From assembly GCA_040216555.1 (NCBI GenBank), contig JAVJOW010000010.1:32943-96942 (forward strand): 64,000 nucleotides of DNA, read 5' to 3'. The notes under the pieces were generated by a model that saw only the letters and a list, made by a program, of their open reading frames with translations, was not told where the DNA came from and searched no databases. Positions 242 through 63,064 of this stretch are shown in pieces. Made by a program: the position numbers and the translations under genes. Position 1 is the first letter of the stretch. Every line of letters begins with the position of its first letter. This DNA is from Arenibacter sp. (GTDB lineage: Bacteria; Bacteroidota; Bacteroidia; Flavobacteriales; Flavobacteriaceae).

Positions 242-1573
242 TTAAGCTTCAGCGGTTACAGGTCCTTTATTTATAATTTTACCTACGAGTATCAAAAATA
301 GCATTCCCAACAATAGATATAATCCAATAAATCCTAATAAGGTAAACAAAGTATTTCCAGAGGATACCGTAGGGGAAATTCCTTCGGAAGTCCGCAATAG
401 GTTATATACCAACCAAGGCTGCCTCCCCAATTCCGCGGTATACCAACCAGTGGTATTGGCAATATAAGGAAAGGGCAGGAAGAATAGCAGGGACCACAAA
501 ATCCATTTGGTACCGTATAATTTTTTGCGCCATAACTGAAAGGCTCCCACCGCCATTATCCCTATAAATAGGGTGCCCAGTCCTACCATTATGTGATAGG
601 CATAATATAATCCAGGAATATTGGTGGGGTAGTTTTCCGGTTCAAATTCGTTCAATCCTTTTACTTCTGCATCCCATTTTTTGTAGGTTAAAAAACTAAG
701 TATATTGGGGACAGCAATTTTATTGTCCAATTTTTTGTCGACCACATTGGGCTGCCCAATTAGAACAATTTCCGATCCACCATCCTGGGTTTCAAATAAT
801 CCTTCCATGGCCGCAAAAGTAACAGGCTGATGTTCCACCACATTTTTAGCGGCCCAATCGCCCGTTGGGAAGGCTACCAATACAGAGGACACTAGTCCAA
901 ATATTACCCCGGTCTTAACAAATAGCTTCCCGAAACTACTGTGTTTGTTGTTCAAAATATAGAAGGCGCCTATAGAAGCCATTACAAAAGATGCGGTTAC
1001 CAAACTGGCCAACTGATTGTGTAAATAGGAGGGCAAGAGCCAAGGGTTGGAGAATAAGGCACCAAAATTAGTCAATACAAATTTGCCATTGCTCAATATT
1101 TCATATCCTACAGGATGCTGCATCCAGGAATGTGTGGCTATTATTAAATAACCACTGGCCCAGGAACCTAAAAAAACCAAGAAACCCGTTACAAAGTGTA
1201 ATTTGTGTCCCAATAATTTCTCGCCGAACAAAAATAGGCCCAAAAAGGAAGATTCCAGAAAAAAGGAGAACATCCCTTCCATGGCCAAGGTCTGCCCAAT
1301 AATTCCACCGGTCAATTCGGAAAATTTGGCCCAATTGGTCCCAAATTGAAATTCCATTGGTATTCCGGTAACAACCCCCATTGCAAAATTAAGGGCAAAG
1401 ATCCGCATCCAAAATTTAGCTGCATCATTATAATGATCAATTCGCGTTCTAAGGAATTTCCATTTAAAATAAACGATGATCAGGGAGAGGCCCATGGTAA
1501 GTTGTGGAAACAAATAGTGGAAGGTGATAGTAAAGGCAAATTGCATTCTATCGTAAAAGAGCATATCCTCCAT
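242..1573 (-). CDS. cydA: Cytochrome bd ubiquinol oxidase subunit I (short Q-loop type)
   Basis: FHYLF (heme b595 His), GIPMEFQFGTNW, FFLES, LHNQ, YHIMVG and ELGRQPW motifs; multiple TM segments. Confidence 0.97.
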   Translation of the reverse strand: MEDMLFYDRMQFAFTITFHYLFPQLTMGLSLIIVYFKWKFLRTRIDHYNDAAKFWMRIFALNFAMGVVTGIPMEFQFGTNWAKFSELTGGIIGQTLAMEGMFSFFLESSFLGLFLFGEKLLGHKLHFVTGFLVFLGSWASGYLIIATHSWMQHPVGYEILSNGKFVLTNFGALFSNPWLLPSYLHNQLASLVTASFVMASIGAFYILNNKHSSFGKLFVKTGVIFGLVSSVLVAFPTGDWAAKNVVEHQPVTFAAMEGLFETQDGGSEIVLIGQPNVVDKKLDNKIAVPNILSFLTYKKWDAEVKGLNEFEPENYPTNIPGLYYAYHIMVGLGTLFIGIMAVGAFQLWRKKLYGTKWILWSLLFFLPFPYIANTTGWYTAELGRQPWLVYNLLRTSEGISPTVSSGNTLFTLLGFIGLYLLLGMLFLILVGKIINKGPVTAEA

Positions 1574-1600: not shown

Positions 1601-1608
1601 TAAAATTA
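1601..1608 (-). promoter_or_regulatory. Putative Bacteroidota -7 element for cydAB (TAATTTTA, one mismatch to TAnnTTTG)
   Basis: Minus-strand read of 1608-1601; 28.5 bp from the centre of the 1629-1644 palindrome. Confidence 0.35.
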
Positions 1609-1628: not shown

Positions 1629-1644
1629 GGTAACACTGGTTACA
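1629..1644. promoter_or_regulatory. Crp/Fnr-type operator candidate GGTAAC-ACTG-GTTACA upstream of cydA
   Basis: 6-4-6 palindrome matching those at 43545-43560 and 45310-45325. Confidence 0.6.
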
Positions 1645-2169: not shown

Positions 2170-2291
2170 TTCAATTATCGCCAATGGATAGCTAAATTCT
2201 TAGTTAAGCCATGGCGTTTTCAAGGAATTGTATTATCTAAATAAATCAAATGAACATTATTAAATGTGCCCATAAGGTATACACAATACTT

Positions 2292-4313
2292 ATGGAAACA
2301 AGCAGACCTATATACATTTGGGTGTTGTTGTTGGGGATATTTATTTTTCCCATTAACATTGGTGCACAGGAATTGGTTTTGCCAAAGGATTCGATCATAA
2401 CGATCAATTTGGACGAAGTTATCCTTATTTCGGCCAGAAAGACTTTGGATTACCATCGTCAGCCCAAACCCCTCTCTACCTTGGACGAGTATCTGGAATC
2501 CTCTAAAAAGGTAGATATGGTGAAACGTGGAGCTTATGCCTGGGAACCAACTCTGAACAATATGTTTTCGGAACGGCTTTCGGTAACTATTGATGGAATG
2601 AGGATTTTTGGTGCATGCACCGACAAGATGGATCCCGTAACTTCCTATGTGGATGTGTCCAATTTATCACGCGCTCATATAGCTTCGGGCCAGCAGGGCA
2701 CCGAACACGGAAACACCATTGGTGGGGCCATTAATTTGGAGCTAGACCGGGGTAATTTTAAGGAAATGGGATTGTATGGTGGAGTGGAAACAGGTTTTGA
2801 GAGCAACAACCAAATGAGTGTTGTTGGGGCCGAATTTAATTATTCGGATTCCAATTTCTATGTGGATACCGATATTATTTATCGCAAGGCAGAAAATTAT
2901 GTTGCGGGGGGCGATGAAGAAGTTGAGTTCTCCCAATTTGAAAAATATAATGTTTCGGCCAATGGCGGATATAAACTTGCGGAAGATCAGGCATTGACGG
3001 CCAGTCTTATTTATGATGAGGCCAGGGATGTGGGCTATCCTGCATTGACTATGGATGTTTCCTTAGCTAGGGCCATTATTGCATCTGTAGGTTTTGAGCA
3101 GGATGCTTTATGGGGTAGTTTAACGAACTGGAAATCCAAGATGTATTTTAATAAGGTAACCCATGTCATGGACGATACCAAACGGCCAGATGTACCCATC
3201 CACATGGATATGCCAGGTTGGAGCGATACCTATGGCTTTTACTCCCAAGCAGCATTACAGGCCAAAAAGCATCAATTTTTATTTAAGGTAGATGGGTATT
3301 ACAACAAATCCTTGGCTGAAATGACAATGTATCCCAATGACCCGAACGAGTTGTCCATGTTTATGCTCACCTGGCCCGATGTACGTACCGCCAACGGTGG
3401 GGTCTATGCGGAGGATGAGCTGGATCTAAATGGTAGTTTTCTTAAGTTAGCGACCAGGCTGACAGTTCAGAACCAGAATGTTGCGGACGAATTTGGATTG
3501 AATAGTCTAAAGATTTTTTATCCTGAGATGGAGAAATCCAAAACTCGGTTCCTAAAAAGTATTTCAGGGCAATGGCATAAAATGTGGATGCCGTGGCATT
3601 TTAATGCGGGACTTTCTTATGGTGATAGGGCCCCTTCCGTGACCGAGGGCTATGGATTTTATTTGTTCAACAGTTTTGATAACCACGACTATATTGGGGA
3701 TCCCGGACTTGCCAACGAAAAATCCATGGAGGCCAATACCAAAATCTCTTGGGAAAAATCCAAGTTTAAGTTAAGTGCCGAGGCCAATTTTTTCCACATC
3801 GCCGATTATATTATTGGGGAAATTGACCCTTCCCTTAGTGTAATGACCATAGGGGCGGAAGGGGTAAAGATCTACAGGAACCTGGATTACGCCAATTTGT
3901 TCAACGCTTCCTTGGATATGGAATACGCCATTTTGCCAGAACTGAAATGGTCCGGGTTGATTTCCTATCATCGTGGTGCGGACAACAATGGTGGCAACTT
4001 ACCTTTTATAAGTCCATTTTCTTACAGATCTGGTTTTCAATTTGATAAGAGGTCATTTTCAGCTGCCCTAAGGATAACCGGAGCAGGAAAACAAGTGAAC
4101 TATAACCCGGATTTCGGAGAAGATCAAACACAGGCCTATATGATTTGTTCCTTGACCTTTGGCAAGACTTTTAAATTTAACAATGATTCCATGTACGCGA
4201 AGTTTGGGGTAGAGAATATTTTTGATGAATACTACTCCACCTATACCGATTGGAAAAACATCCCAAGAATGGGGCGAAACTTTTTTTTAACACTTTCTTA
4301 TTCCATTAATTAA
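2292..4313 (+). CDS. TonB-dependent receptor, OprC-like (probable copper uptake)
   Basis: Signal peptide from Met 2292 (track start 2250); plug motif GACTDKMDP (CxxxM); THVMDD (HxM); C-terminal MGRNFFLTLSYSIN barrel strand. Confidence 0.8.
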   Translation: METSRPIYIWVLLLGIFIFPINIGAQELVLPKDSIITINLDEVILISARKTLDYHRQPKPLSTLDEYLESSKKVDMVKRGAYAWEPTLNNMFSERLSVTIDGMRIFGACTDKMDPVTSYVDVSNLSRAHIASGQQGTEHGNTIGGAINLELDRGNFKEMGLYGGVETGFESNNQMSVVGAEFNYSDSNFYVDTDIIYRKAENYVAGGDEEVEFSQFEKYNVSANGGYKLAEDQALTASLIYDEARDVGYPALTMDVSLARAIIASVGFEQDALWGSLTNWKSKMYFNKVTHVMDDTKRPDVPIHMDMPGWSDTYGFYSQAALQAKKHQFLFKVDGYYNKSLAEMTMYPNDPNELSMFMLTWPDVRTANGGVYAEDELDLNGSFLKLATRLTVQNQNVADEFGLNSLKIFYPEMEKSKTRFLKSISGQWHKMWMPWHFNAGLSYGDRAPSVTEGYGFYLFNSFDNHDYIGDPGLANEKSMEANTKISWEKSKFKLSAEANFFHIADYIIGEIDPSLSVMTIGAEGVKIYRNLDYANLFNASLDMEYAILPELKWSGLISYHRGADNNGGNLPFISPFSYRSGFQFDKRSFSAALRITGAGKQVNYNPDFGEDQTQAYMICSLTFGKTFKFNNDSMYAKFGVENIFDEYYSTYTDWKNIPRMGRNFFLTLSYSIN

Positions 4314-39879: not shown

Positions 39880-40659
39880 ATGGTGAAGCTAAAACTACAT
39901 AATCAAATAGTGAAAATAGATGAAGGGGAACTGGTAGGCTACTTAGCGGACGGCCACGAGTATATTCACCAAAAAGGTAGCCCAGGATGGCGAAACTCGG
40001 ATACCGAAATGTTTCCAATAATAGGACCCACCAATGAGGCAAATTTTAGGGTCACAACCCCCAAAGGTACAGCTGTTCAGGATCAACATGGCCTATTGAG
40101 GGAAATGGCATACCAACTTGTTTCCGAAACCAATACCAAAGCCATCTTTAGGAAGCAATATGTTTCCAGTACCCCAATAAAGAACTCTAAATATCCCTCT
40201 AAATCCACGGAGGAATATTTGTCATGGCCATATAATTTTGAATTTACAAAGTCCTACGAGATTTTGGAAAACGGATTAAAAATTCAATTCACAATTACAG
40301 GAGAGGAAGGAATGCCCTTTATGTTGGGATATCATCCTGCATTTAAGCTATATTCGGAAAATGTCTCCATAAGAACGGCTCATCGTAACATTGCCCTACA
40401 GGAGGTACTGGATGTGGGCAGTAGGGCCTTAGCGGTTATGGACTGTAATTTCCTTACCTTAGTGGATGTTGGAGAGCTTAGTATAAAAACCGAAGGCTTT
40501 GGGAATTTTATGTTGTGGACAGAGGTTCCCAATATGCTGTGTATAGAACCTATTACCTTTTATCCCTATGCGGTAAGCCAGGAGAAATTACACAATGGAT
40601 TTCATACGGTAAATATGTCTGAAAATATTTTTTCGGTAATAATACAACCTAACATTTGA
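39880..40659 (+). CDS. Aldose 1-epimerase (galactose mutarotase-like) family protein
   Basis: MFPIIG, QHGLLR, GYHPAF and LCIEP. Confidence 0.82.
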   Translation: MVKLKLHNQIVKIDEGELVGYLADGHEYIHQKGSPGWRNSDTEMFPIIGPTNEANFRVTTPKGTAVQDQHGLLREMAYQLVSETNTKAIFRKQYVSSTPIKNSKYPSKSTEEYLSWPYNFEFTKSYEILENGLKIQFTITGEEGMPFMLGYHPAFKLYSENVSIRTAHRNIALQEVLDVGSRALAVMDCNFLTLVDVGELSIKTEGFGNFMLWTEVPNMLCIEPITFYPYAVSQEKLHNGFHTVNMSENIFSVIIQPNI

Positions 40660-40669
40660 TACGATAAGA

Positions 40670-41302
40670 ATGACAGAAGCATTACAATTACATTATGGTT
40701 ATCTTTTTGAACCAGAGTTGTTAGAGGAAATTAGGACGGTGGGCAGCTATAAAAAAGTTGATCAAGGTCAAACTTTAATGGAAATCGGTGACAATATAAA
40801 GTCCATGCCCTTGTTACTAAGTGGGGCTATTAAGGTTTTAAGGGAAGATGATGACGGCAATGAACTGTTGTTGTATTTTGTAGAAAAAGGGGATACTTGC
40901 GCCATGACTTTTTCTTGTTGTATGGGGAACAAAACAAGTGGCATTAGGGCCGTGGCCGAAACGGATACCGAATTATTGATGATCCCGGTGAGTTACCTGG
41001 AGACATGGATGGGAAAATACAAATCATGGCAGAGGTTTATCTTGGACAGTTATAATGCCCGTATGATGGAGCTTATGGAGACCATAGATACACTTGCTTT
41101 TCTACGAATGGATGAGCGGTTATTGAAGCACTTGCAGGATAAGGCCAAAGTAACCCACGATGATGTATTATATGCTACCCATCAAGAGATCGCCTACGAC
41201 CTTCACACTTCACGAGTGGTGGTGTCCCGGCTATTGAAAAAAATGGAGAATGATGGTAAGATAGAACTTTATCGAAATCAGATAAAGGTGCTGGATCTAT
41301 AA
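40670..41302 (+). CDS. Crp/Fnr family transcriptional regulator
   Basis: cNMP-binding fold (LLLSGAIKV...ELLLYFVEKGDTC) and C-terminal HTH THQEIAYDLHTSRVVVSRLLK. Confidence 0.92.
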   Translation: MTEALQLHYGYLFEPELLEEIRTVGSYKKVDQGQTLMEIGDNIKSMPLLLSGAIKVLREDDDGNELLLYFVEKGDTCAMTFSCCMGNKTSGIRAVAETDTELLMIPVSYLETWMGKYKSWQRFILDSYNARMMELMETIDTLAFLRMDERLLKHLQDKAKVTHDDVLYATHQEIAYDLHTSRVVVSRLLKKMENDGKIELYRNQIKVLDL

Positions 41303-41370
41303 TTTTTAATGTTAAGACTTGTTATTGAGAAGTTTAAGTGTTAAACTTGTCTTGGTAAAAGTAAAGATGT

Positions 41371-42549
41371 ATGAGGATTGGTTTTTGCAGGTATACCCTT
41401 GTCCTGTCCGTAATTTTAACGGGTTGTGGCAATTCTACCAAGAAAGGGGAAATAGATATGTCCCGGCCCAAGGAGATTGCCACAGTTGCGGCTCTACCTC
41501 AGATTATAAAAACACCGATAGGAAATCCCAATTCCAAGGAGAAGGAACTTTTAGGGAAACTTCTTTTCTATGACCCTATTCTTTCAGGTGGTAAAGATAT
41601 TGCATGTGCCAGTTGTCATCATCCCGCTACCGGATATGCGGAGTTCTTGGATCTATCTATTGGTGCAAATGGTCATGGGTTGGGAAGTAAAAGGGCGTTT
41701 AAGGAGCCCAACGCAATTCCCCTTATGAAACGCAATTCCCCCACCATTTTAAACACGGCATATAACGGAATACACGGGAAGGACGATTATGATCCGGAAA
41801 ATGCTCCCATGTTTTGGGACGACCGTGTAAAAAGTTTGGAAAAACAGGCTTTGGAACCCATCAAGACCTTGGAAGAAATGAAAGGTGTCCACATTGCCAA
41901 ATCCCAAATTTTAGCTGAAGTGGCAGCAAGACTTCAATCCATTCCTGAATACAAAAATCTTTTTGCAGAAGCTTTTGGTATGGATGCACCAATAGACAGT
42001 ATTCATATTGGCATGGCCATTGCCTCTTTTGAAAGAACTTTAGTGGCCAATAATTCCCGTTTTGATCAATATATGGCGGGAGATGTAAACGCCATATCCC
42101 ATTCGGAAAAGGAAGGCTTGGAACTTTTTAAATCGGTAGGTTGCATCAATTGCCATAACGGGCCTATGTTTTCCGACTATAAATTGCACGTTCTAGGAGT
42201 GCCGGAAAACAAGAAGGTTTCAGAACCCGACAGTGGATTCCAGGAAAGTTTTGCATTTAGGACCGCTTCTCTTAGGAATTTGCGTTTTACTGCGCCCTAT
42301 ATGCATAATGGTGCCTTTCAAAATTTAAAACAGGTACTGGAATTCTATGAGGATATTTCTTTTGGAAAAACACGAAATCCCTCGGTATCCAAGGAAATGT
42401 TCGATCCCCTTGTCAGGGAGCTGCAACTAAGTGTTAAGGATATGTCCTTGATCATTTCTTTTTTGAATACCCTTAATGATGACAATTTTGACAAGGAAAT
42501 CCCCGAAAAGGTCCCTAGTGGATTGCCTGTAGGCGGAAATATTCAATAG
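41371..42549 (+). CDS. Diheme cytochrome c peroxidase / MauG-family lipoprotein
   Basis: Lipobox LTGC; LGKLLFYD..LS, CASCHH, RNSPT, FWD.R, CINCH and APYMHNG. Confidence 0.88.
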   Translation: MRIGFCRYTLVLSVILTGCGNSTKKGEIDMSRPKEIATVAALPQIIKTPIGNPNSKEKELLGKLLFYDPILSGGKDIACASCHHPATGYAEFLDLSIGANGHGLGSKRAFKEPNAIPLMKRNSPTILNTAYNGIHGKDDYDPENAPMFWDDRVKSLEKQALEPIKTLEEMKGVHIAKSQILAEVAARLQSIPEYKNLFAEAFGMDAPIDSIHIGMAIASFERTLVANNSRFDQYMAGDVNAISHSEKEGLELFKSVGCINCHNGPMFSDYKLHVLGVPENKKVSEPDSGFQESFAFRTASLRNLRFTAPYMHNGAFQNLKQVLEFYEDISFGKTRNPSVSKEMFDPLVRELQLSVKDMSLIISFLNTLNDDNFDKEIPEKVPSGLPVGGNIQ

Positions 42550-42567
42550 TTGGTTGTTCCAGGATAA

Positions 42568-43446
42568 TTAATTGTATTTACAATCCTCGGGGTCAGATTT
42601 AATAAAGTACTTACGATAATTGGAGGCTTTGGGGTCCATACAACCCTTTAGGTTTTTTAATTCCACTTTTCTAAAGTCTATGGGCTGTCCTTCTGCCTGT
42701 AAAGCTATAAAACCTTCCTTTAATAATTTACCGTCGATTTTGACAGCGGGATCATATCGGTTGGCAACACCGCCCCCTATTTGTGGTTTGGTGTATTTCA
42801 ATACCTCGTCTCCATTTACTATATGAGTCACAAGGGAATCTCCCAAAACAATTGCCTCGGCACGTACCCATTGTTCTCCGAAATAGGTCTTGGAAGTAGA
42901 ATTTATACAGTGTCTTGGATCAATTTTACCTTCGTATACCACATCTGTTCCCGGGGAGCACATGTTTCCGGTGGGTCGCGATTTTCCTTCTTCCAATCCT
43001 GCCAAAAATTGCATTTCCACAGAAATGGGCCAATCCTGCTCCCTGGGCATGGTCCTGGGATCTTGGGAATGGAACATTACCCCACTATTTTTTATGGTAT
43101 AACTTGGGGCTCCCGGGTGCAATTCTCCTACAAAACGATATTCTATCACTAGATGATAATAGGAATATGGGGTGTTATAATACAGGTGGCCATAACGTTC
43201 ATTAAAATCGCCCTCATATTTATCATAGCGCACTTTTATGATACTGTCTTCTACCCTAAAGGTATCGCCATAATTGTCCCCAACTTCATAATGGTGAATC
43301 TTGGTGGTCCAATCATTTATATCCTTTTTATTGAACATGGAAATCCATCCGTCGTTTTTTTCTTCTGAAACAGATTTTACCGTGCTGCACTGGCAAAGAA
43401 GTAAAGCAGCTGTTAAACAACTTATGAATAAGAAGATTTTATGCAT
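42568..43446 (-). CDS. DUF1080 (3-keto-disaccharide hydrolase-like) secreted protein
   Basis: Probable start Met 43446; W..MFN.KD..DW, NSGVMFH, EMQFL and GFIALQAEG. Confidence 0.85.
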   Translation of the reverse strand: MHKIFLFISCLTAALLLCQCSTVKSVSEEKNDGWISMFNKKDINDWTTKIHHYEVGDNYGDTFRVEDSIIKVRYDKYEGDFNERYGHLYYNTPYSYYHLVIEYRFVGELHPGAPSYTIKNSGVMFHSQDPRTMPREQDWPISVEMQFLAGLEEGKSRPTGNMCSPGTDVVYEGKIDPRHCINSTSKTYFGEQWVRAEAIVLGDSLVTHIVNGDEVLKYTKPQIGGGVANRYDPAVKIDGKLLKEGFIALQAEGQPIDFRKVELKNLKGCMDPKASNYRKYFIKSDPEDCKYN

Positions 43447-43544
43447 ATTCCAAGAATTTATATGAATTGAGAGCACAAGATAAAATATTTAATGTTAGTT
43501 AGTACCAACTTCAATTGAAGTAATACGTGTAAAGGCTAAAATTC

Positions 43545-43560
43545 TGTAACCTTCGTTACA
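43545..43560. promoter_or_regulatory. Crp/Fnr-type operator candidate TGTAAC-CTTC-GTTACA upstream of sulP
   Basis: Perfect 6-4-6 palindrome; centre 29.5 bp before TAAATTTG (43582-43589). Confidence 0.7.
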
Positions 43561-43581
43561 TAGGAATAAGGTATTTAATAC

Positions 43582-43589
43582 TAAATTTG
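43582..43589 (+). promoter_or_regulatory. -7 element TAAATTTG for sulP
   Basis: Exact TAnnTTTG, 4 nt before the ATG at 43594. Confidence 0.55.
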
Positions 43590-43593
43590 GTGA

Positions 43594-45318
43594 ATGAGGA
43601 GATTTTTACCTTTTTTGGATTGGCTTCCAAAATATAACAAAAACCTTTTTGGAAAAGATTTGGTGGCGGGCATAACCGTGGGTATAATTTTAATTCCCCA
43701 AGGTATGGCCTACGCTATGATTGCCGGACTACCACCGGTTTATGGTTTATATGCCTCATTGTTCCCCATTACGGTATATGCCTTTTTGGGTACGTCCAGG
43801 CAAATTGCTGTAGGTCCCGTGGCCATGGATTCGCTATTGGTGGCTGCTGGATTGGGAACCTTGGCCATAACAGGAGTGCAAAACTATATTTTAATGGCAT
43901 TGTTCCTGTCCTTTATGATAGGGGCATTTCAGTTGGCCTTTGGTTTTTTGCGTATGGGCTTTCTGGTAAACTTTATGTCAAGGCCTGTAATTAGTGGATT
44001 TACCTCTGCTGCTGCCGTTATCATAATTTTTAGTCAATTAAAGCACTTACTGGGAGCGGATATCATTAATAGCAATAAATTTCACGAGCTGGTTATTAAT
44101 GCTTTTCAGCATTTATCGGAAACCAATATTTATGATTTCTCTATTGGGATAATAGGAATTCTGATCATTGTTTCCTTTAAAAAATGGTTTGATAGATTTC
44201 CGGCCATATTGTTGGTTGTTGTGCTAAGTACACTTATAGTTTACTTTTTTGATTTGGAAGCCTTTGATGTGCAGGTAGTTGGTGAAGTACCGGCAGGCCT
44301 TCCATCTTTTAATATTCATAGTTTTAACATGGAAAAGGTTAGGGAAATATGGCCTATCGCTCTTACCGTGGCATTGGTTGGATATTTGGAGGCTATTTCC
44401 ATTGGCAGGGCATTTGAAGAAAAAAATAAAGTGGAAACCATAGACCCCAACCAAGAGTTGATAGCATTGGGGGCTTCAAATATGATAGGTTCATTTTTTC
44501 AGTCCTATTCGGTTACGGCAAGTTTTTCCCGTTCCGCTATAAATTACGAGGCCGGTGCCAAGTCTACTGTGGCTTCGTTGATAAGTGTTGTTATGGTAGC
44601 TCTGACACTATTATTTCTTACCCCATTATTCTATAATTTGCCAAAGGCGGCACTGGCTTCCATTATTATGGTTTCCGTTTTTGGATTAATAGATCTTTCC
44701 TATCCCAAAAAATTATGGTACCAAAGTAGGGATGAGTTTATAGTTCTTTTGATAACTTTTTTAATTACCCTTGGCGTTGGAATTGTAGAAGGTATTTTAA
44801 TAGGGGTGTTGTTATCCCTGCTCCTTATGGTGTATAGGACCTCCAAACCTCATTTCGCAGTGTTGGGAAGTATTAAGGGGTCCGATTATTATAAAAATAT
44901 TAGTCGTTTTGGTGATGAGGCCGAGGTTCGTCCTGACCTTTTGATCGTCAGGTTCGATTCCCAACTTTATTTTGGGAATTCGGGCTATTTTAAAAGTGAA
45001 CTTTTCAAATTCATCAATGTCAAAGGCCGTTCTTTGAAGGCCGTGATTTTAAATGCTGAAGCCATTAATTATATAGATGCTAGCGCATCTACCATGTTGA
45101 TCAACGTTATTGAAGAAATCCACAACCGCAACATCGAGTTTTATATCGCAGGCGCTACGGGACCTATTAGGGACATAATATTCAAGAGCGGAATTATCAA
45201 CTGTCTACATAAAGAGTATCTTTTTGTAAAGATAAAGGAAGCCGTAGCCTACCATGATGATCCCAATACCATTCCCTTGCTCAGGGAGAGGGTAGCACAT
45301 CAAAATCAAAGTAACTAA
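43594..45318 (+). CDS. SulP/SLC26 anion permease with STAS domain
   Basis: DLVAGITV...IPQGMAYA, GLYAS, ELIALGASN, SFSRSA and C-terminal STAS (RFDSQLYFGN, INYIDASA). Confidence 0.93.
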   Translation: MRRFLPFLDWLPKYNKNLFGKDLVAGITVGIILIPQGMAYAMIAGLPPVYGLYASLFPITVYAFLGTSRQIAVGPVAMDSLLVAAGLGTLAITGVQNYILMALFLSFMIGAFQLAFGFLRMGFLVNFMSRPVISGFTSAAAVIIIFSQLKHLLGADIINSNKFHELVINAFQHLSETNIYDFSIGIIGILIIVSFKKWFDRFPAILLVVVLSTLIVYFFDLEAFDVQVVGEVPAGLPSFNIHSFNMEKVREIWPIALTVALVGYLEAISIGRAFEEKNKVETIDPNQELIALGASNMIGSFFQSYSVTASFSRSAINYEAGAKSTVASLISVVMVALTLLFLTPLFYNLPKAALASIIMVSVFGLIDLSYPKKLWYQSRDEFIVLLITFLITLGVGIVEGILIGVLLSLLLMVYRTSKPHFAVLGSIKGSDYYKNISRFGDEAEVRPDLLIVRFDSQLYFGNSGYFKSELFKFINVKGRSLKAVILNAEAINYIDASASTMLINVIEEIHNRNIEFYIAGATGPIRDIIFKSGIINCLHKEYLFVKIKEAVAYHDDPNTIPLLRERVAHQNQSN

Positions 45319-45325
45319 TGTTGCA
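45310..45325. promoter_or_regulatory. Crp/Fnr-type operator candidate AGTAAC-TAAT-GTTGCA upstream of the MBL-rhodanese gene (overlaps the sulP stop)
   Basis: Two mismatches to TGTAAC-N4-GTTACA; centre 29.5 bp before TACCTTTG (45347-45354). Confidence 0.6.
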
Positions 45326-45346
45326 TTTGGGGAGGTCTATATTATT

Positions 45347-45354
45347 TACCTTTG
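45347..45354 (+). promoter_or_regulatory. -7 element TACCTTTG for the MBL-rhodanese gene
   Basis: Exact TAnnTTTG match in the intergenic region. Confidence 0.55.
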
Positions 45355-45530
45355 TAAATAATGGTGATTTTCTATAAAAAAAAGTTTTGATTAAATTTTA
45401 ATCATCCCGCAAAAAAAATAAGAGTAAGCAATGAGCCATAATAATCTTGGATACCAAAAGTAATATAAAAAGGTAAATTAATCCCAATTGTTCTTGGGAG
45501 GGCTTATTAAAAACCAATAATTTTATACAG

Positions 45531-46940
45531 ATGAAAATAGAACAGATTTATACAGGATGTTTGGCGCAGGGTGCGTACTATATAGAAAGTAAAGGTGAAG
45601 TGGCCATTATTGACCCCTTACGTGAGGTTGAACCTTATATAAAACGGGCCAAAGACGATAATGCCTCCATAAAATATATTTTTGAAACACATTTTCATGC
45701 AGATTTTGTGAGCGGGCACATTACCCTGTCCAAAGAAACAGGTGCCCCTATAGTGTATGGTCCCACAGCCAATCCTTCTTTTGACGCCATAATAGCTGAA
45801 GATGGTCAGGAATTTATGCTTGGGGATATCACTATCAAGGCCTTGCATACCCCAGGGCATACCATGGAAAGTACCACCTATTTATTAAGGAATGAAAAGG
45901 GTAAGGATTATGCCATATTTTCTGGGGATACCTTGTTTTTAGGTGATGTAGGTCGACCAGATTTGGCGCAGAAGGCGGCCAATATGACCCAAGAGGATTT
46001 GGCCGGTTTATTGTTCAATAGTCTCAGAAACAAAATTATGCCTTTGGCAGATGATGTGGTGGTTTATCCCGCACATGGTGCTGGTTCTGCCTGTGGAAAG
46101 AACATGATGAAGGAAACCGTGGATACCTTGGGCAATCAAAAGAAAATGAATTATGCCCTACGTGCCAATATGACCAAGGAGGAATTTGTGAAGGAGGTTA
46201 CAGAAGGATTATTACCACCTCCAAAATATTTTCCGCTCAATGTAAAGATGAACAAAGAGGGATATGAGGATATTGGGGAAGTATTGGAAAGGGGTACTAC
46301 CGCGTTGTCCCCCGATGCATTTGAGGAGGCTGCCAATGCCACGGACGCGGTTATTTTGGATGTGAGACATCAGGACGAATTTGTAAAGGGATTTGTTCCG
46401 CGATCTATCTTTATAGGATTGGATGGGAGTTTTGCCCCTTGGGTAGGGGCCCTAATTGCTGATACCAAGCAGTCTATCTTACTGGTGGCTCCCGAAGGTA
46501 GGGAGGAAGAAACCATCATAAGACTGTCCAGGGTTGGCTTTGATGCCACTATTGGCTATTTAAAGGGAAGTTTCAAGGCATGGAAAAATTCAGGAAAGGA
46601 ATATGATACCATTACTTCCATTGCTGCCAAAGACTTGAAAGAAACTCTCGATAATAAAGAAGTTCCTGTTTTTGATGTTAGGAAAGAATCGGAATACCTT
46701 TCCGAGCATATGGAGAATGCAAACAACACTCCTTTGGATTTTTTAAATGACCATATGGCAGAATTTCCTAAGGAGGATACCTTTTATGTACATTGTGCGG
46801 GAGGATACAGGTCGGTTATAGCGGCATCCATTTTAAAAAGTAGGGGCATCCATAACCTAGTGGATATAGGAGGTGGCTTTGATCAGATAAAAGATTCTGG
46901 CTATAAGGTAACCGACTATGTTTGTCCTACTACGCTTTAA
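45531..46940 (+). CDS. MBL-fold hydrolase (persulfide dioxygenase-like) fused to two rhodanese domains
   Basis: ETHFHADFVSG, HTPGHT, GDTLFLGDVGRPDL, YPAHGAGSACG; C-terminal rhodanese YVHCAGGYRS. Confidence 0.9.
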   Translation: MKIEQIYTGCLAQGAYYIESKGEVAIIDPLREVEPYIKRAKDDNASIKYIFETHFHADFVSGHITLSKETGAPIVYGPTANPSFDAIIAEDGQEFMLGDITIKALHTPGHTMESTTYLLRNEKGKDYAIFSGDTLFLGDVGRPDLAQKAANMTQEDLAGLLFNSLRNKIMPLADDVVVYPAHGAGSACGKNMMKETVDTLGNQKKMNYALRANMTKEEFVKEVTEGLLPPPKYFPLNVKMNKEGYEDIGEVLERGTTALSPDAFEEAANATDAVILDVRHQDEFVKGFVPRSIFIGLDGSFAPWVGALIADTKQSILLVAPEGREEETIIRLSRVGFDATIGYLKGSFKAWKNSGKEYDTITSIAAKDLKETLDNKEVPVFDVRKESEYLSEHMENANNTPLDFLNDHMAEFPKEDTFYVHCAGGYRSVIAASILKSRGIHNLVDIGGGFDQIKDSGYKVTDYVCPTTL

Positions 46941-46943
46941 AAG

Positions 46944-46955
46944 TGATATTTATCA
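46944..46955. promoter_or_regulatory. FNR-like palindrome TGAT-ATTT-ATCA upstream of the 42-aa ORF
   Basis: 4-4-4 palindrome; centre 29.5 bp before TATTTTAG (46979-46986, one mismatch to TAnnTTTG). Confidence 0.4.
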
Positions 46956-47011
46956 TATTTTAAAGTTCTGTTTGTATATATTTTAGCCTACTGAATCTAA
47001 AATTAGTACCT

Positions 47012-47140
47012 ATGATTTTACAATACTTGCCATTAGTAAATTGGAGTAATGGAATAGTAATGATTGCTGTTTTTGGCGCTGTTTGTGTTGGTCTGGTTAC
47101 CGCCGTATTGATGTTGATGAACAGTGGTAAGAAAAAATAG
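47012..47140 (+). CDS. Small single-pass membrane protein (42 aa), not in the ORF track
   Basis: Manual translation MILQYLPLVNWSNGIVMIAVFGAVCVGLVTAVLMLMNSGKKK*: one hydrophobic helix and a basic tail. Confidence 0.6.
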   Translation: MILQYLPLVNWSNGIVMIAVFGAVCVGLVTAVLMLMNSGKKK

Positions 47141-47181
47141 GCTGGGTATTTCAAAAGTGTGAAATACCCAACTATGTTTCT

Positions 47182-48561
47182 TCAAAAGGAAAGAGTGGTG
47201 AAAGAAATGGCCTTGTTCGGGTTTTTTCTTAAATACCAAGACAGAATCCGTTTGGTATCCATATTTTCTTTTTGGAGTTCCAAAAAATTTTCCAAGGCGT
47301 CAATACTATCTATCTGCTCGTGCCGTGGTATGAAACCATAACCCTTGTATTTGTTGTTGACCACCAATACAAAGGCTTCTTCCTTTGTGTGTCTGCCCTT
47401 TTCCTTGATTACTAAATTCTGGTTTTTGTCCATCAATTCATCAATGGCCATTTTTACTTTGGTATTATAGTCCATAGGCGATTCCGTTCCCCTACAAATT
47501 CCGGTGCAGTTGGTGATACTATAATGGGAGCAGCTGCTAATATTTTCCTGTAGATGACAGAATTTAGGACATAAACCGTAGTTCTTGCATAGTTCCTCCA
47601 AGAACAACCTGCAATCCGTAATGGTGTTAAAAGTGGAAATTGGGTTGGGTGTCAATTTTAATTTGTTGTACGCCAAGTGTTGTATTCCGTTTCTATCTTC
47701 ATAGGAAAATATGGCGTACTCCGTTGGGGTGCGTTTCTGACTTTGATTGTACAATGGGAAATGTTGTTTTATAGCTGCCGATTCCATTAAAAGAGCAATT
47801 AGCTCGTTCCCGGATAATTCAAAATCAATGTCGTGCGTGGCCTTGCACATTAAAATTTCTTTATTGGCCTTGTCATAAAAATGCCCCAGCACCCGTTTTT
47901 TGATATCAACGGCTTTGCCTACATATATTATTGTTCCCTTTGCATCTTTAAAATAATAAATACCGGGGGAATTGGGCAGTCTTTCAAAAATTTCCTTGGG
48001 CAGCAATGGAGGTAAGGTGGCTTCCTGTGAGCGTGCATTAAGAAAGGATTTAAATACCTTTTCCGCACCATCGGACCTGAGTAGTTTTTTAAATAAAATC
48101 ACCGTGGCCTGGGCGTCCCCTTTGGCTCTGTGGCGGTCCGTTAAGGGAATATTCAAAGAGGTGCATAATTTTCCCAAACTATAGGAGTTTAAGCCAGGGA
48201 TAAGTTTTCTGGACAATCGAACCGTACATAATTTCTTGCGGGAAAAATTAATTCCGATATTCTGAAATTCATTTTTGATGACATTGTAGTCAAAGTTTAC
48301 GCTATGGGCCACAAATACAGTGTCCTGCGTTATTTCCAATACCTTTGAAGCTATTTCTTCCCAAATCGGGGCATTGCGCACCAGATTGTTGTCGATTCCC
48401 GTCAATCCCGCAATAAAGTAGGGAATTTCACATTCAGGGTTTACCAGGGAAGTATATTCATCAATGATTTCATAACCGTCGAATTTGAAAATGGAGATTT
48501 CAGTAATCTTATTTCCTTTTATCCCGTTTCCGGTAGTTTCTATATCAATGATGGTGTACAT
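47182..48561 (-). CDS. DEDDh 3'-5' exonuclease (DnaQ-like) fused to a GIY-YIG/UvrC(Cho)-like domain
   Basis: IIDIETTG, VAHSVNFD, HRAKGDA; GIYYF...IYVGKA..IKKRV; Cys-rich UvrC-like tail. Confidence 0.88.
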   Translation of the reverse strand: MYTIIDIETTGNGIKGNKITEISIFKFDGYEIIDEYTSLVNPECEIPYFIAGLTGIDNNLVRNAPIWEEIASKVLEITQDTVFVAHSVNFDYNVIKNEFQNIGINFSRKKLCTVRLSRKLIPGLNSYSLGKLCTSLNIPLTDRHRAKGDAQATVILFKKLLRSDGAEKVFKSFLNARSQEATLPPLLPKEIFERLPNSPGIYYFKDAKGTIIYVGKAVDIKKRVLGHFYDKANKEILMCKATHDIDFELSGNELIALLMESAAIKQHFPLYNQSQKRTPTEYAIFSYEDRNGIQHLAYNKLKLTPNPISTFNTITDCRLFLEELCKNYGLCPKFCHLQENISSCSHYSITNCTGICRGTESPMDYNTKVKMAIDELMDKNQNLVIKEKGRHTKEEAFVLVVNNKYKGYGFIPRHEQIDSIDALENFLELQKENMDTKRILSWYLRKNPNKAISFTTLSF

Positions 48562-63032: not shown

Positions 63033-63064
63033 TTGGAACTTGTGTTAAAAGGTTAAGAATTGTT

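Follow-up and report, generated by a model that had tools for sequence, protein, structure and literature searches.

A conserved palindrome of fixed promoter geometry and a candidate Crp/Fnr-type regulon for sulfide and reactive sulfur detoxification in Flavobacteriia

The subject of this analysis is a palindromic sequence, here called the box, which occurs upstream of three genes, sulP, a cstB-like gene and cydA, in a 64-kb window of Arenibacter sp. (contig JAVJOW010000010.1; the window is the whole stretch of DNA that was analysed). The boxes stand at a fixed distance from the promoter, are conserved across genera, precede mainly genes of sulfur metabolism and lie close to the gene of a Crp/Fnr-family regulator, which we call REG. 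The three palindromes are probably the operators of a Flavobacteriia-wide regulon for the detoxification of sulfide and reactive sulfur, which would be bound by REG, activated in the class II manner and switched by sulfane sulfur. We assign this reading a probability of about 0.65.

Box 1 (TGTAACCTTCGTTACA, 43545-43560, plus strand) is a perfect palindrome, and its centre is located 29.5 bp 5' of the T of TA in the -7 element TAAATTTG (43582-43589, plus strand) of sulP. Box 2 (AGTAACTAATGTTGCA, 45310-45325, plus strand) has one mismatch in the ten-base core and is centred at the same distance, 29.5 bp, from the T of TA in the -7 element TACCTTTG (45347-45354, plus strand) of the cstB-like gene. 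Box 3 (TGTAACCAGTGTTACC, 1629-1644, minus strand) has the exact core and is centred 28.5 bp 5' of the -7-like element TAATTTTA (1601-1608, minus strand) of cydA. The original prediction, made from the window itself, had described the first two boxes with their exact TAnnTTTG elements at these coordinates, and all of this checks out in the sequence. It had also counted the copy before cydA at 28.5 bp; the box is there, but the final G of the element is replaced by A, and it is not an exact TAnnTTTG. Box 2 reaches into the 3' end of sulP and takes in its stop codon and the two codons before it. The left arm is therefore also under coding constraint, while the right arm is free of it and yet is kept across genera. 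Counterparts of box 2 with a perfect core are found at the same place in other Arenibacter species and in other genera.

The boxes in the window are real and go beyond chance. When the window was shuffled 200 times with its dinucleotides preserved, 0.055 exact cores (GTAAC-N4-GTTAC) were expected and two are observed, while for the core with at most one mismatch the expected number was 1.17 and the observed number is five. The combination of a box with an exact TAnnTTTG at 28.5 or 29.5 bp is present twice in the window and in none of the shuffles. The 16-mer searched at three mismatches is not enriched in the window (31 observed against 27.7 expected), so only stringent sites are meaningful, and weak sites were dropped. 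Four window matches were rejected as chance: those at 46187, 32555 and 63726 lie within coding sequence, and the one at 63034 abuts an ATG start codon.

A 5-4-5 palindrome at -41.5 is the signature of a class II activator of the Crp/Fnr family. The sigma-A element TAnnTTTG maps to -12 to -5 in Flavobacterium johnsoniae (PMC6847099) and likewise in the transcription start maps of F. psychrophilum (PMC9723704). The predicted box centres are therefore -41.5 for a distance of 29.5 bp, as in the sulP and cstB-like promoters, and -40.5 for 28.5 bp, as in the cydA promoter; a centre near -41.5 had been proposed from the start and is backed by both maps. The predicted transcription starts are 43594, 45359 and 1596 for sulP, the cstB-like gene and cydA, respectively. 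The ATG of sulP begins at 43594, 4 nt past the G of its -7 element, which confirms the gap originally noted. Since the predicted start is the A of this ATG, the sulP mRNA would be leaderless, like about 5.5% of the transcripts of F. psychrophilum (PMC9723704). The 4-nt gap is kept in more than 25 loci from Arenibacter, Sediminicola, Saonia, Cellulophaga and metagenome-assembled genomes (MAGs); in Flavicella, Pricia and others it measures 16-18 nt. For the cstB-like gene a leader of 172 nt is predicted. Its -7 element is separated from the ATG by 65-191 nt in other Arenibacter species, and by only about 20 nt in other genera. A search of positions 40000-48000 gave no match in Rfam, so the long leader (45355-45530) is not a known riboswitch. 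No terminator was found between sulP and the cstB-like gene in a scan that used sigma-70 promoters and is itself uninformative for Bacteroidota.

The conservation of the boxes was assessed in about 155 related loci: 69 around SulP relatives, with one genome per species, 80 around CydA relatives from metagenomes, and 6 around relatives of REG and SQR. Among the non-redundant boxes that have no or one core mismatch and precede an exact TAnnTTTG, the distance is 29.5 bp in 71 of 80, 28.5 bp in five, and another value within 60 bp in four. The consensus of 101 distinct promoters, a set picked by the box itself, reads w-w-t-GTAAC-wwww-GTTAC-w, followed by 21 unconserved bases and TAhhTTTG. Across the 101 non-redundant sites the conservation of the arms is 90-100%; the spacer is rich in A/T but otherwise unconstrained. 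The arms of 5 bp with a gap of 4 bp match the FNR type of Crp/Fnr operator, whereas the gap in the CRP type is 6 bp. No -33 element (TTTG) is visible between the box and the -7 element in these promoters. The lack of anything conserved in this interval fits activator-dependent promoters. The original prediction expected enrichment of the motif 28-31 bp before TAnnTTTG and ahead of rhodanese, YeeE/YedE and sqr genes, and on the related loci this proved positive.

The box upstream of sulP is kept at the same distance in Arenibacter, Sediminicola, Saonia, Flavicella, Pricia, Maribacter and several MAGs, while the flanking sequences diverge. A box of the correct geometry is present in 38 of the 47 sulP loci that also contain a cstB-like gene, compared with 4 of the 20 that do not (Fisher p 4e-6, a value not corrected for phylogeny; shared ancestry among the loci inflates such simple statistics). 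The genus Maribacter illustrates this association. In many loci of the Maribacter type sulP lies in the same neighbourhood with neither a cstB-like gene nor REG nearby, and there is no box; in a Maribacter with the gene order REG-DinB-SulP-CstB both boxes are present. For cydA, a box at 28.5 or 29.5 bp is found in 8 of about 24 flavobacterial metagenome loci.

The proteins encoded behind the boxes in the window were identified by domain searches, and Pfam agrees with the identities first proposed for SulP, the metallo-beta-lactamase (MBL)-rhodanese protein, the bd oxidase and the Crp/Fnr protein. The sulP gene (43594-45318, plus strand) encodes an anion transporter of the SulP family with a STAS domain (Pfam Sulfate_transp and STAS, and NCBIfam), which has 99% identity with SulP of A. 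echinorum DSM 23522. The cstB-like gene (45531-46940, plus strand) encodes a putative persulfide dioxygenase of 469 amino acids with an MBL fold and two rhodanese domains (Pfam Lactamase_B and two Rhodanese). It matches over its full length PDB entry 3r2u (E 1e-53), which we take to be CstB of S. aureus, a persulfide dioxygenase-sulfurtransferase, and it also matches PDB entry 3tp9 (E 3e-66). Subunit I of cytochrome bd oxidase is encoded by cydA (242-1573, minus strand; Pfam Cyt_bd_oxida_I, E 4e-146).

In the related loci nearly every cstB-like gene is boxed. The boxed transporter genes are sulP or tauE in the same slot, and YeeE-type Sulf_transp genes. Other boxed genes encode single-domain rhodaneses, a secreted MBL-rhodanese protein, YgaP-like membrane proteins, a sulfite-oxidase-type molybdoenzyme and CydAB, and a boxed thioredoxin operon often includes an HMA protein, a Tll0287-like cytochrome c and a TPMT-family methyltransferase. 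In all three genera picked at random from the matches (Cellulophaga baltica, Polaribacter pacificus and Nonlabens ulvanivorans), sqr has an exact box centred 29.5 bp 5' of its -7 element, and it is boxed in three more loci (L075, L076 and L052). As judged from sequence similarity, a cst-type gene set thus appears to stand behind boxes of one type, with the CstB-like protein in the window and SQR, TauE, rhodaneses and YeeE in related genera. In Olleya and Psychroserpens the tauE gene (L150, 10700-11497; L152, 10702-11499) takes the place that sulP has in the window, between REG and the cstB-like gene. This exchange in a single slot suggests, by analogy with TauE, that SulP may export sulfite or thiosulfate rather than import sulfate.

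Two of the boxed gene types deserve separate mention. An OEP-MFP-RND efflux operon has an exact box at 29.5 bp in three genera (L153, 12317; L154, 7715; L155, 7674), where it is located directly 3' of sqr and of an open reading frame (ORF) of 42-46 amino acids; such a pump is a surprising member of a sulfide regulon. A TPMT-family thiol methyltransferase is found repeatedly in boxed operons beside rhodanese, thioredoxin or cydAB (L052, 13582-14172; L150, 14246-14848; L154, 2531-3109), and this enzyme might methylate sulfide or thiols derived from persulfides.

REG (40670-41302, plus strand) contains the Pfam domains cNMP_binding (PF00027) and HTH_Crp_2 (PF13545) and is the candidate binder of the boxes. 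The AlphaFold model (mean confidence, pLDDT, of 89.8) has the Crp fold, with a helix at residues 118-145 and a helix-turn-helix at 171-194, and the top Foldseek matches of the model are all Crp/Fnr proteins. REG thus has the domains, the dimerisation helix and the helix-turn-helix by which the Crp/Fnr family is defined. The REG family comprises 223 clusters (50% identity) at E<1e-30. The regulator gene lies within a few kb of the boxes in Arenibacter, is also beside boxed genes in Maribacter, and is located immediately 5' of boxed genes in Croceivirga, Flavicella, Pricia, Olleya, Psychroserpens and others. The REG gene is itself boxed in Croceivirga and, weakly, with one mismatch, in Olleya. 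This adjacency, the family-typical format of the site and the occasional autoregulatory sites strongly argue that REG is the protein that binds the box. Neither REG paralogues nor further regulon homologues were found in the 64-kb window.

The recognition helix of REG is TSRVVVSRLLK, and the family pattern is TSR-V-V-[IV]-SRLLK, in which a Val takes the place of Glu181 of CRP. In CRP this Glu181 reads the G:C pair of TGTGA. A hydrophobic Val at the same position would fit the A:T pair of TGTAA, in which A replaces G at position 4 of the box. In the Saprospiraceae locus L065 (gene order REG-SulP...cydA), where REG has Glu at position 181, there is no box of either type, GTAAC or GTGAC. Two tandem REG paralogues lie 5' of a boxed sulP in a Flavobacteriales MAG (L062, 4712-6071); one has Glu and two of the three cysteines discussed below, and the other has Val and all three.

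The other characteristic feature of REG is a cluster of three cysteines, C77, C83 and C84 (GDTCAMTFSCCMG), in the pattern GDTC-x5-CC at residues 74-84. Of 140 family representatives, which go down to about 35% identity, 137 have C77, while the CC pair is a feature of the closer subfamily. According to the alignment with CRP and the AlphaFold model, in which residues 78-85 form a helix, the cluster occupies the place of the cassette that binds the cAMP phosphate in CRP. The segment of REG aligned with this cassette (the Arg82/Ser83 context of CRP) is TCAMTFSCCMGNKTSG, in which the Ser (S90) is conserved and the Arg is not. REG scores 54 against the NCBIfam CRP model, for which the cut-off is 266.

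These features allow us to propose the following mechanism. When sulfane sulfur derived from sulfide, as persulfide or polysulfide, accumulates, REG would be switched on; the likely sensor is Cys77 with the Cys83/84 pair, acting directly or via a cofactor held there. The REG dimer would bind tGTAAC-N4-GTTACa at -41.5 or -40.5 and would touch RNA polymerase as a class II activator. In other genera SQR would convert H2S to sulfane sulfur, the CstB-like dioxygenase-rhodanese would convert persulfide to sulfite or thiosulfate, and SulP, or TauE in other genera, would export the anion products. Cytochrome bd could sustain respiration, because it is not poisoned by sulfide. This oxidase supports respiration when heme-copper oxidases are inhibited (reviewed in PMC9774590). 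The nature of the signal, sulfide-derived sulfane sulfur, is suggested by the regulon content alone. As to the chemistry, we can only speculate that the Cys cluster senses by persulfidation, by polysulfide bridges of the kind known from SqrR and CstR, or by a heme or iron-sulfur cofactor; the conservation of the cluster makes this reasonable.

Several observations weigh against this proposal. The scan covered one 64-kb window and related loci that are each about 10-21 kb long, and no sqr was seen in the window. The sulP box has been lost in the Arenibacter loci L015, L017 and L019-21 although REG is present, and about two thirds of the flavobacterial cydA loci have no box; the membership of the regulon is therefore fluid. 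The Cys cluster lies in the region of lowest confidence in the REG model. A site overlapping the -35 region could repress as well as activate. The boxed thioredoxin, 1-Cys peroxiredoxin, Dps and RND pump genes would suit a sensor of general thiol or oxidative stress, and the box is identical to one predicted earlier for a different Crp/Fnr regulator, HcpR2. The last three points are the basis of other explanations, which must be weighed in turn.

The first of these is that REG is a repressor, which would occlude the upstream half of the promoter and be released by the signal, as are CstR, SqrR and BigR. The box does cover the place of a would-be -33 element, and, as far as is known, the well-studied dedicated persulfide sensors are all repressors except FisR. 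However, across dozens of promoters and genera the spacing varies by no more than 1 bp, a constancy which a polymerase-contacting activator needs and occlusion does not, and the promoters have no conserved -33 element; both facts suggest activation rather than repression. In addition, most Crp/Fnr proteins activate from -41.5. Repression by REG is accordingly unlikely, although it survives better than the explanations that follow.

REG could also be a general sensor of thiol oxidation, responding to disulfide, peroxide or electrophile stress, with the sulfur genes as part of a broader redox regulon. The four boxed genes of stress defence and efflux named above speak for this, and clustered cysteines could make a sensor reactive towards many oxidants. 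However, the genes that are boxed most constantly (cstB-like, sulP or tauE, and sqr) have functions particular to sulfide and persulfide, and the persulfide regulons of CstR, SqrR and BigR also hold genes of the thioredoxin type. We consider a general thiol sensor slightly less likely again than a repressor.

Another explanation is an oxygen-limitation sensor of the FNR type, in which the three cysteines would hold an iron-sulfur cluster. The core of such a micro-oxic regulon would be the bd oxidase, and the sulfur genes would be passengers, since sulfide and low oxygen co-occur. In its favour, cydAB is a classic low-oxygen target, the format of the site (5-4-5 at -41.5) is FNR-like, and three cysteines close together might in principle serve as ligands of a cluster, with Bacillus Fnr, which uses three Cys plus Asp, as a precedent. 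The REG gene of Olleya is also near genes for cbb3 assembly, Usp and radical-SAM proteins. But these Olleya genes have no good box, while tauE, cstB, the trx operon and yeeE there are boxed, and across the wider family only C77 is invariant. REG, with no Cys in its first 76 residues, lacks the N-terminal Cys-x2-Cys-x5-Cys by which FNR, together with a fourth Cys, binds a 4Fe-4S cluster, and the box differs from TTGAT-N4-ATCAA. Moreover, the boxed genes mostly encode sulfur enzymes and transporters. The original prediction had left the signal as sulfide or low oxygen; the regulon content favours sulfide or persulfide, and an oxygen sensor is improbable.

It is useful to compare the proposed system with FNR and CRP of E. 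coli as class II activators. They share with REG the dimeric Crp/Fnr fold, the 5-4-5 palindrome at -41.5 (here a predicted position) and the dispensability of a -35-type element. The half-site recognized differs, being GTAAC for the REG box and TTGAT or TGTGA for the E. coli proteins. REG also differs in having neither the N-terminal iron-sulfur cysteines of FNR nor the cAMP pocket of CRP, which is replaced by the Cys cluster, and in its predicted use of a sigma-A promoter of the Bacteroidota type (TAnnTTTG at -12 to -5).

The box sequence itself has a history. The sequence GTAACnnnnGTTAC was derived in 2005 as the predicted box of HcpR2, an FNR/CRP branch encoded beside hcp in Bacteroides, Clostridium, Thermotogales and Treponema (Rodionov et al., PMC1274295). 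It was therefore inaccurate to suppose, as originally stated, that no Bacteroidota regulon with this box had been described, although the HcpR2 regulon holds hcp and not sulfur genes. HcpR2 resembles REG in being a Crp/Fnr regulator with the same predicted box, in occurring in Bacteroidota and in having its gene beside the target. The two differ in that hcp is usually the sole member of the HcpR2 regulon, while at least 10 kinds of sulfur and redox genes stand behind the boxes described here; none of hcp, nor, hmp and nitrite reductase genes is behind any box in the about 155 loci. They also differ in the recognition helix, where Pro in place of CRP Glu181 defines HcpR2 and the REG orthologues have Val (TSR-V-V). 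REG thus fails two of the three criteria for HcpR2 (no hcp in the examined loci, Val at 181), and for this reason is not filed as HcpR2. For the same reasons, and since P. gingivalis HcpR is not among the solved-structure sequence matches of REG at E<1e-3, it is very improbable that REG is an HcpR2-type sensor of nitric oxide or nitrosative stress whose regulon shields respiration from nitric oxide, even though the box is shared, Crp/Fnr sensors of nitric oxide such as DNR and HcpR are well known, and cytochrome bd also tolerates this gas. REG is best seen as a sister lineage of HcpR2, in which the half-site was retained or arose by convergence and the regulon came to be a different one. The sequence GTAAC-N4-GTTAC thus serves regulons of different content across Bacteroidota, and caution is needed when annotation is transferred by motif. 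As far as we have searched, the box was already known and the content of the regulon is new; in about 8 million full texts of the literature, with RegPrecise outside the scope, neither a Crp/Fnr-type regulator of sulfide or persulfide nor this regulon in Flavobacteria was found described.

The gene content brings the proposed regulon closest to the cst operon of S. aureus. Both include a CstB homologue, a TauE exporter, SQR and rhodanese-type sulfurtransferases, and the inferred signal is the same. The regulon described here adds cydAB, SulP, YeeE, a sulfite oxidase and an RND pump. The regulators are different, as CstR is a repressor with the four-helix bundle of the CsoR family, while REG is a Crp/Fnr protein and probably an activator. 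The same holds for SqrR, BigR and YgaV of the ArsR family and for the sigma-54 activator FisR, which control sqr, pdo (blh), rhodanese and tauE-like genes via sulfide-derived sulfane sulfur, with sensing through two cysteines in SqrR and BigR. Their folds and DNA sites are unrelated to those of REG, and none of them is encoded beside these genes in the examined loci. Domain searches of REG in Pfam and NCBIfam found only Crp/Fnr domains, with no CsoR, ArsR or sigma-54 enhancer-binding protein fold. REG is thus at most a functional analogue of the known persulfide sensors. Among solved structures, the one nearest to the REG family is that of a Crp/Fnr protein of Eubacterium rectale from structural genomics (PDB code 3dv8), with a profile E value of 6e-42, compared with 5e-22 for CRP. 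This protein has the first two of the three clustered cysteines, but the third is absent, and Glu at the CRP 181 position suggests that its box is probably different.

A more far-reaching proposal is that REG founds a new structural class of sulfide or persulfide sensor, in which Cys77, Cys83 and Cys84, or a bound cofactor, would occupy the cyclic-nucleotide pocket of a Crp/Fnr scaffold, and which, in contrast to CstR, SqrR and BigR, would switch its genes on as a class II activator. It would then be the master regulator of sulfide oxidation by heterotrophic marine Flavobacteriia. We offer this tentatively, at somewhat less than even odds. Sulfide is common in coastal water and sediment, and Flavobacteriia are major degraders of the organic matter in these habitats; we know of no account of sulfide sensing in this group. 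To our knowledge, the well-studied dedicated regulators of sulfide and persulfide are all of the CsoR or ArsR families or sigma-54 activators, mostly from Proteobacteria and Firmicutes. Already on the main reading, REG would be a sulfide-responsive switch of an undescribed kind, and it is a testable candidate for new sensor chemistry on the Crp/Fnr scaffold. The conserved operator with its strict geometry is a tool for annotating the sulfide response in hundreds of genomes. It also indicates new candidate genes for sulfur handling, namely SulP as a putative exporter, the TPMT-like methyltransferases, the Tll0287-like cytochrome c, the RND pump and the YgaP-like membrane proteins.

A second Crp/Fnr-like palindrome, cTGAC-AATT-GTCAt, is located at 1688-1701, and its centre is 30.5 bp 5' of TATATTTG (1725-1732). 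It lies upstream of a gene for a protein of 124 amino acids (1795-2169) and a TonB-dependent receptor gene (2250-4313), both divergent from cydA. In three other loci, homologues of the 124-amino acid gene are preceded by TGTGAC-N4-GTCACA exactly 29.5 bp before TAATTTTG, with the ATG 4 nt further. Palindromes of this second type are found at L071 444-459, L083 3044-3059, L155 3299-3314 and L153 11474-11489. GTGAC is also the most frequent single departure among the GTAAC boxes. Perhaps the regulator of these boxes accepts GTRAC; alternatively, the second type of site may involve a paralogue whose residue at position 181 is Glu.

A gene similar to those of di-heme cytochrome c peroxidase, MauG and MbnH (41371-42549) is located between REG and sulP in Arenibacter, and a gene of this kind is directly 5' of sulP in the loci L027 and L041. 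It was rejected as a member of the regulon, as it has no good box. At the other end, a strong bidirectional hairpin terminator (47141-47172) lies between the small ORF region 3' of the cstB-like gene and a convergent exonuclease/GIY-YIG gene (47182-48561), and it marks the end of the sulP-cstB unit.

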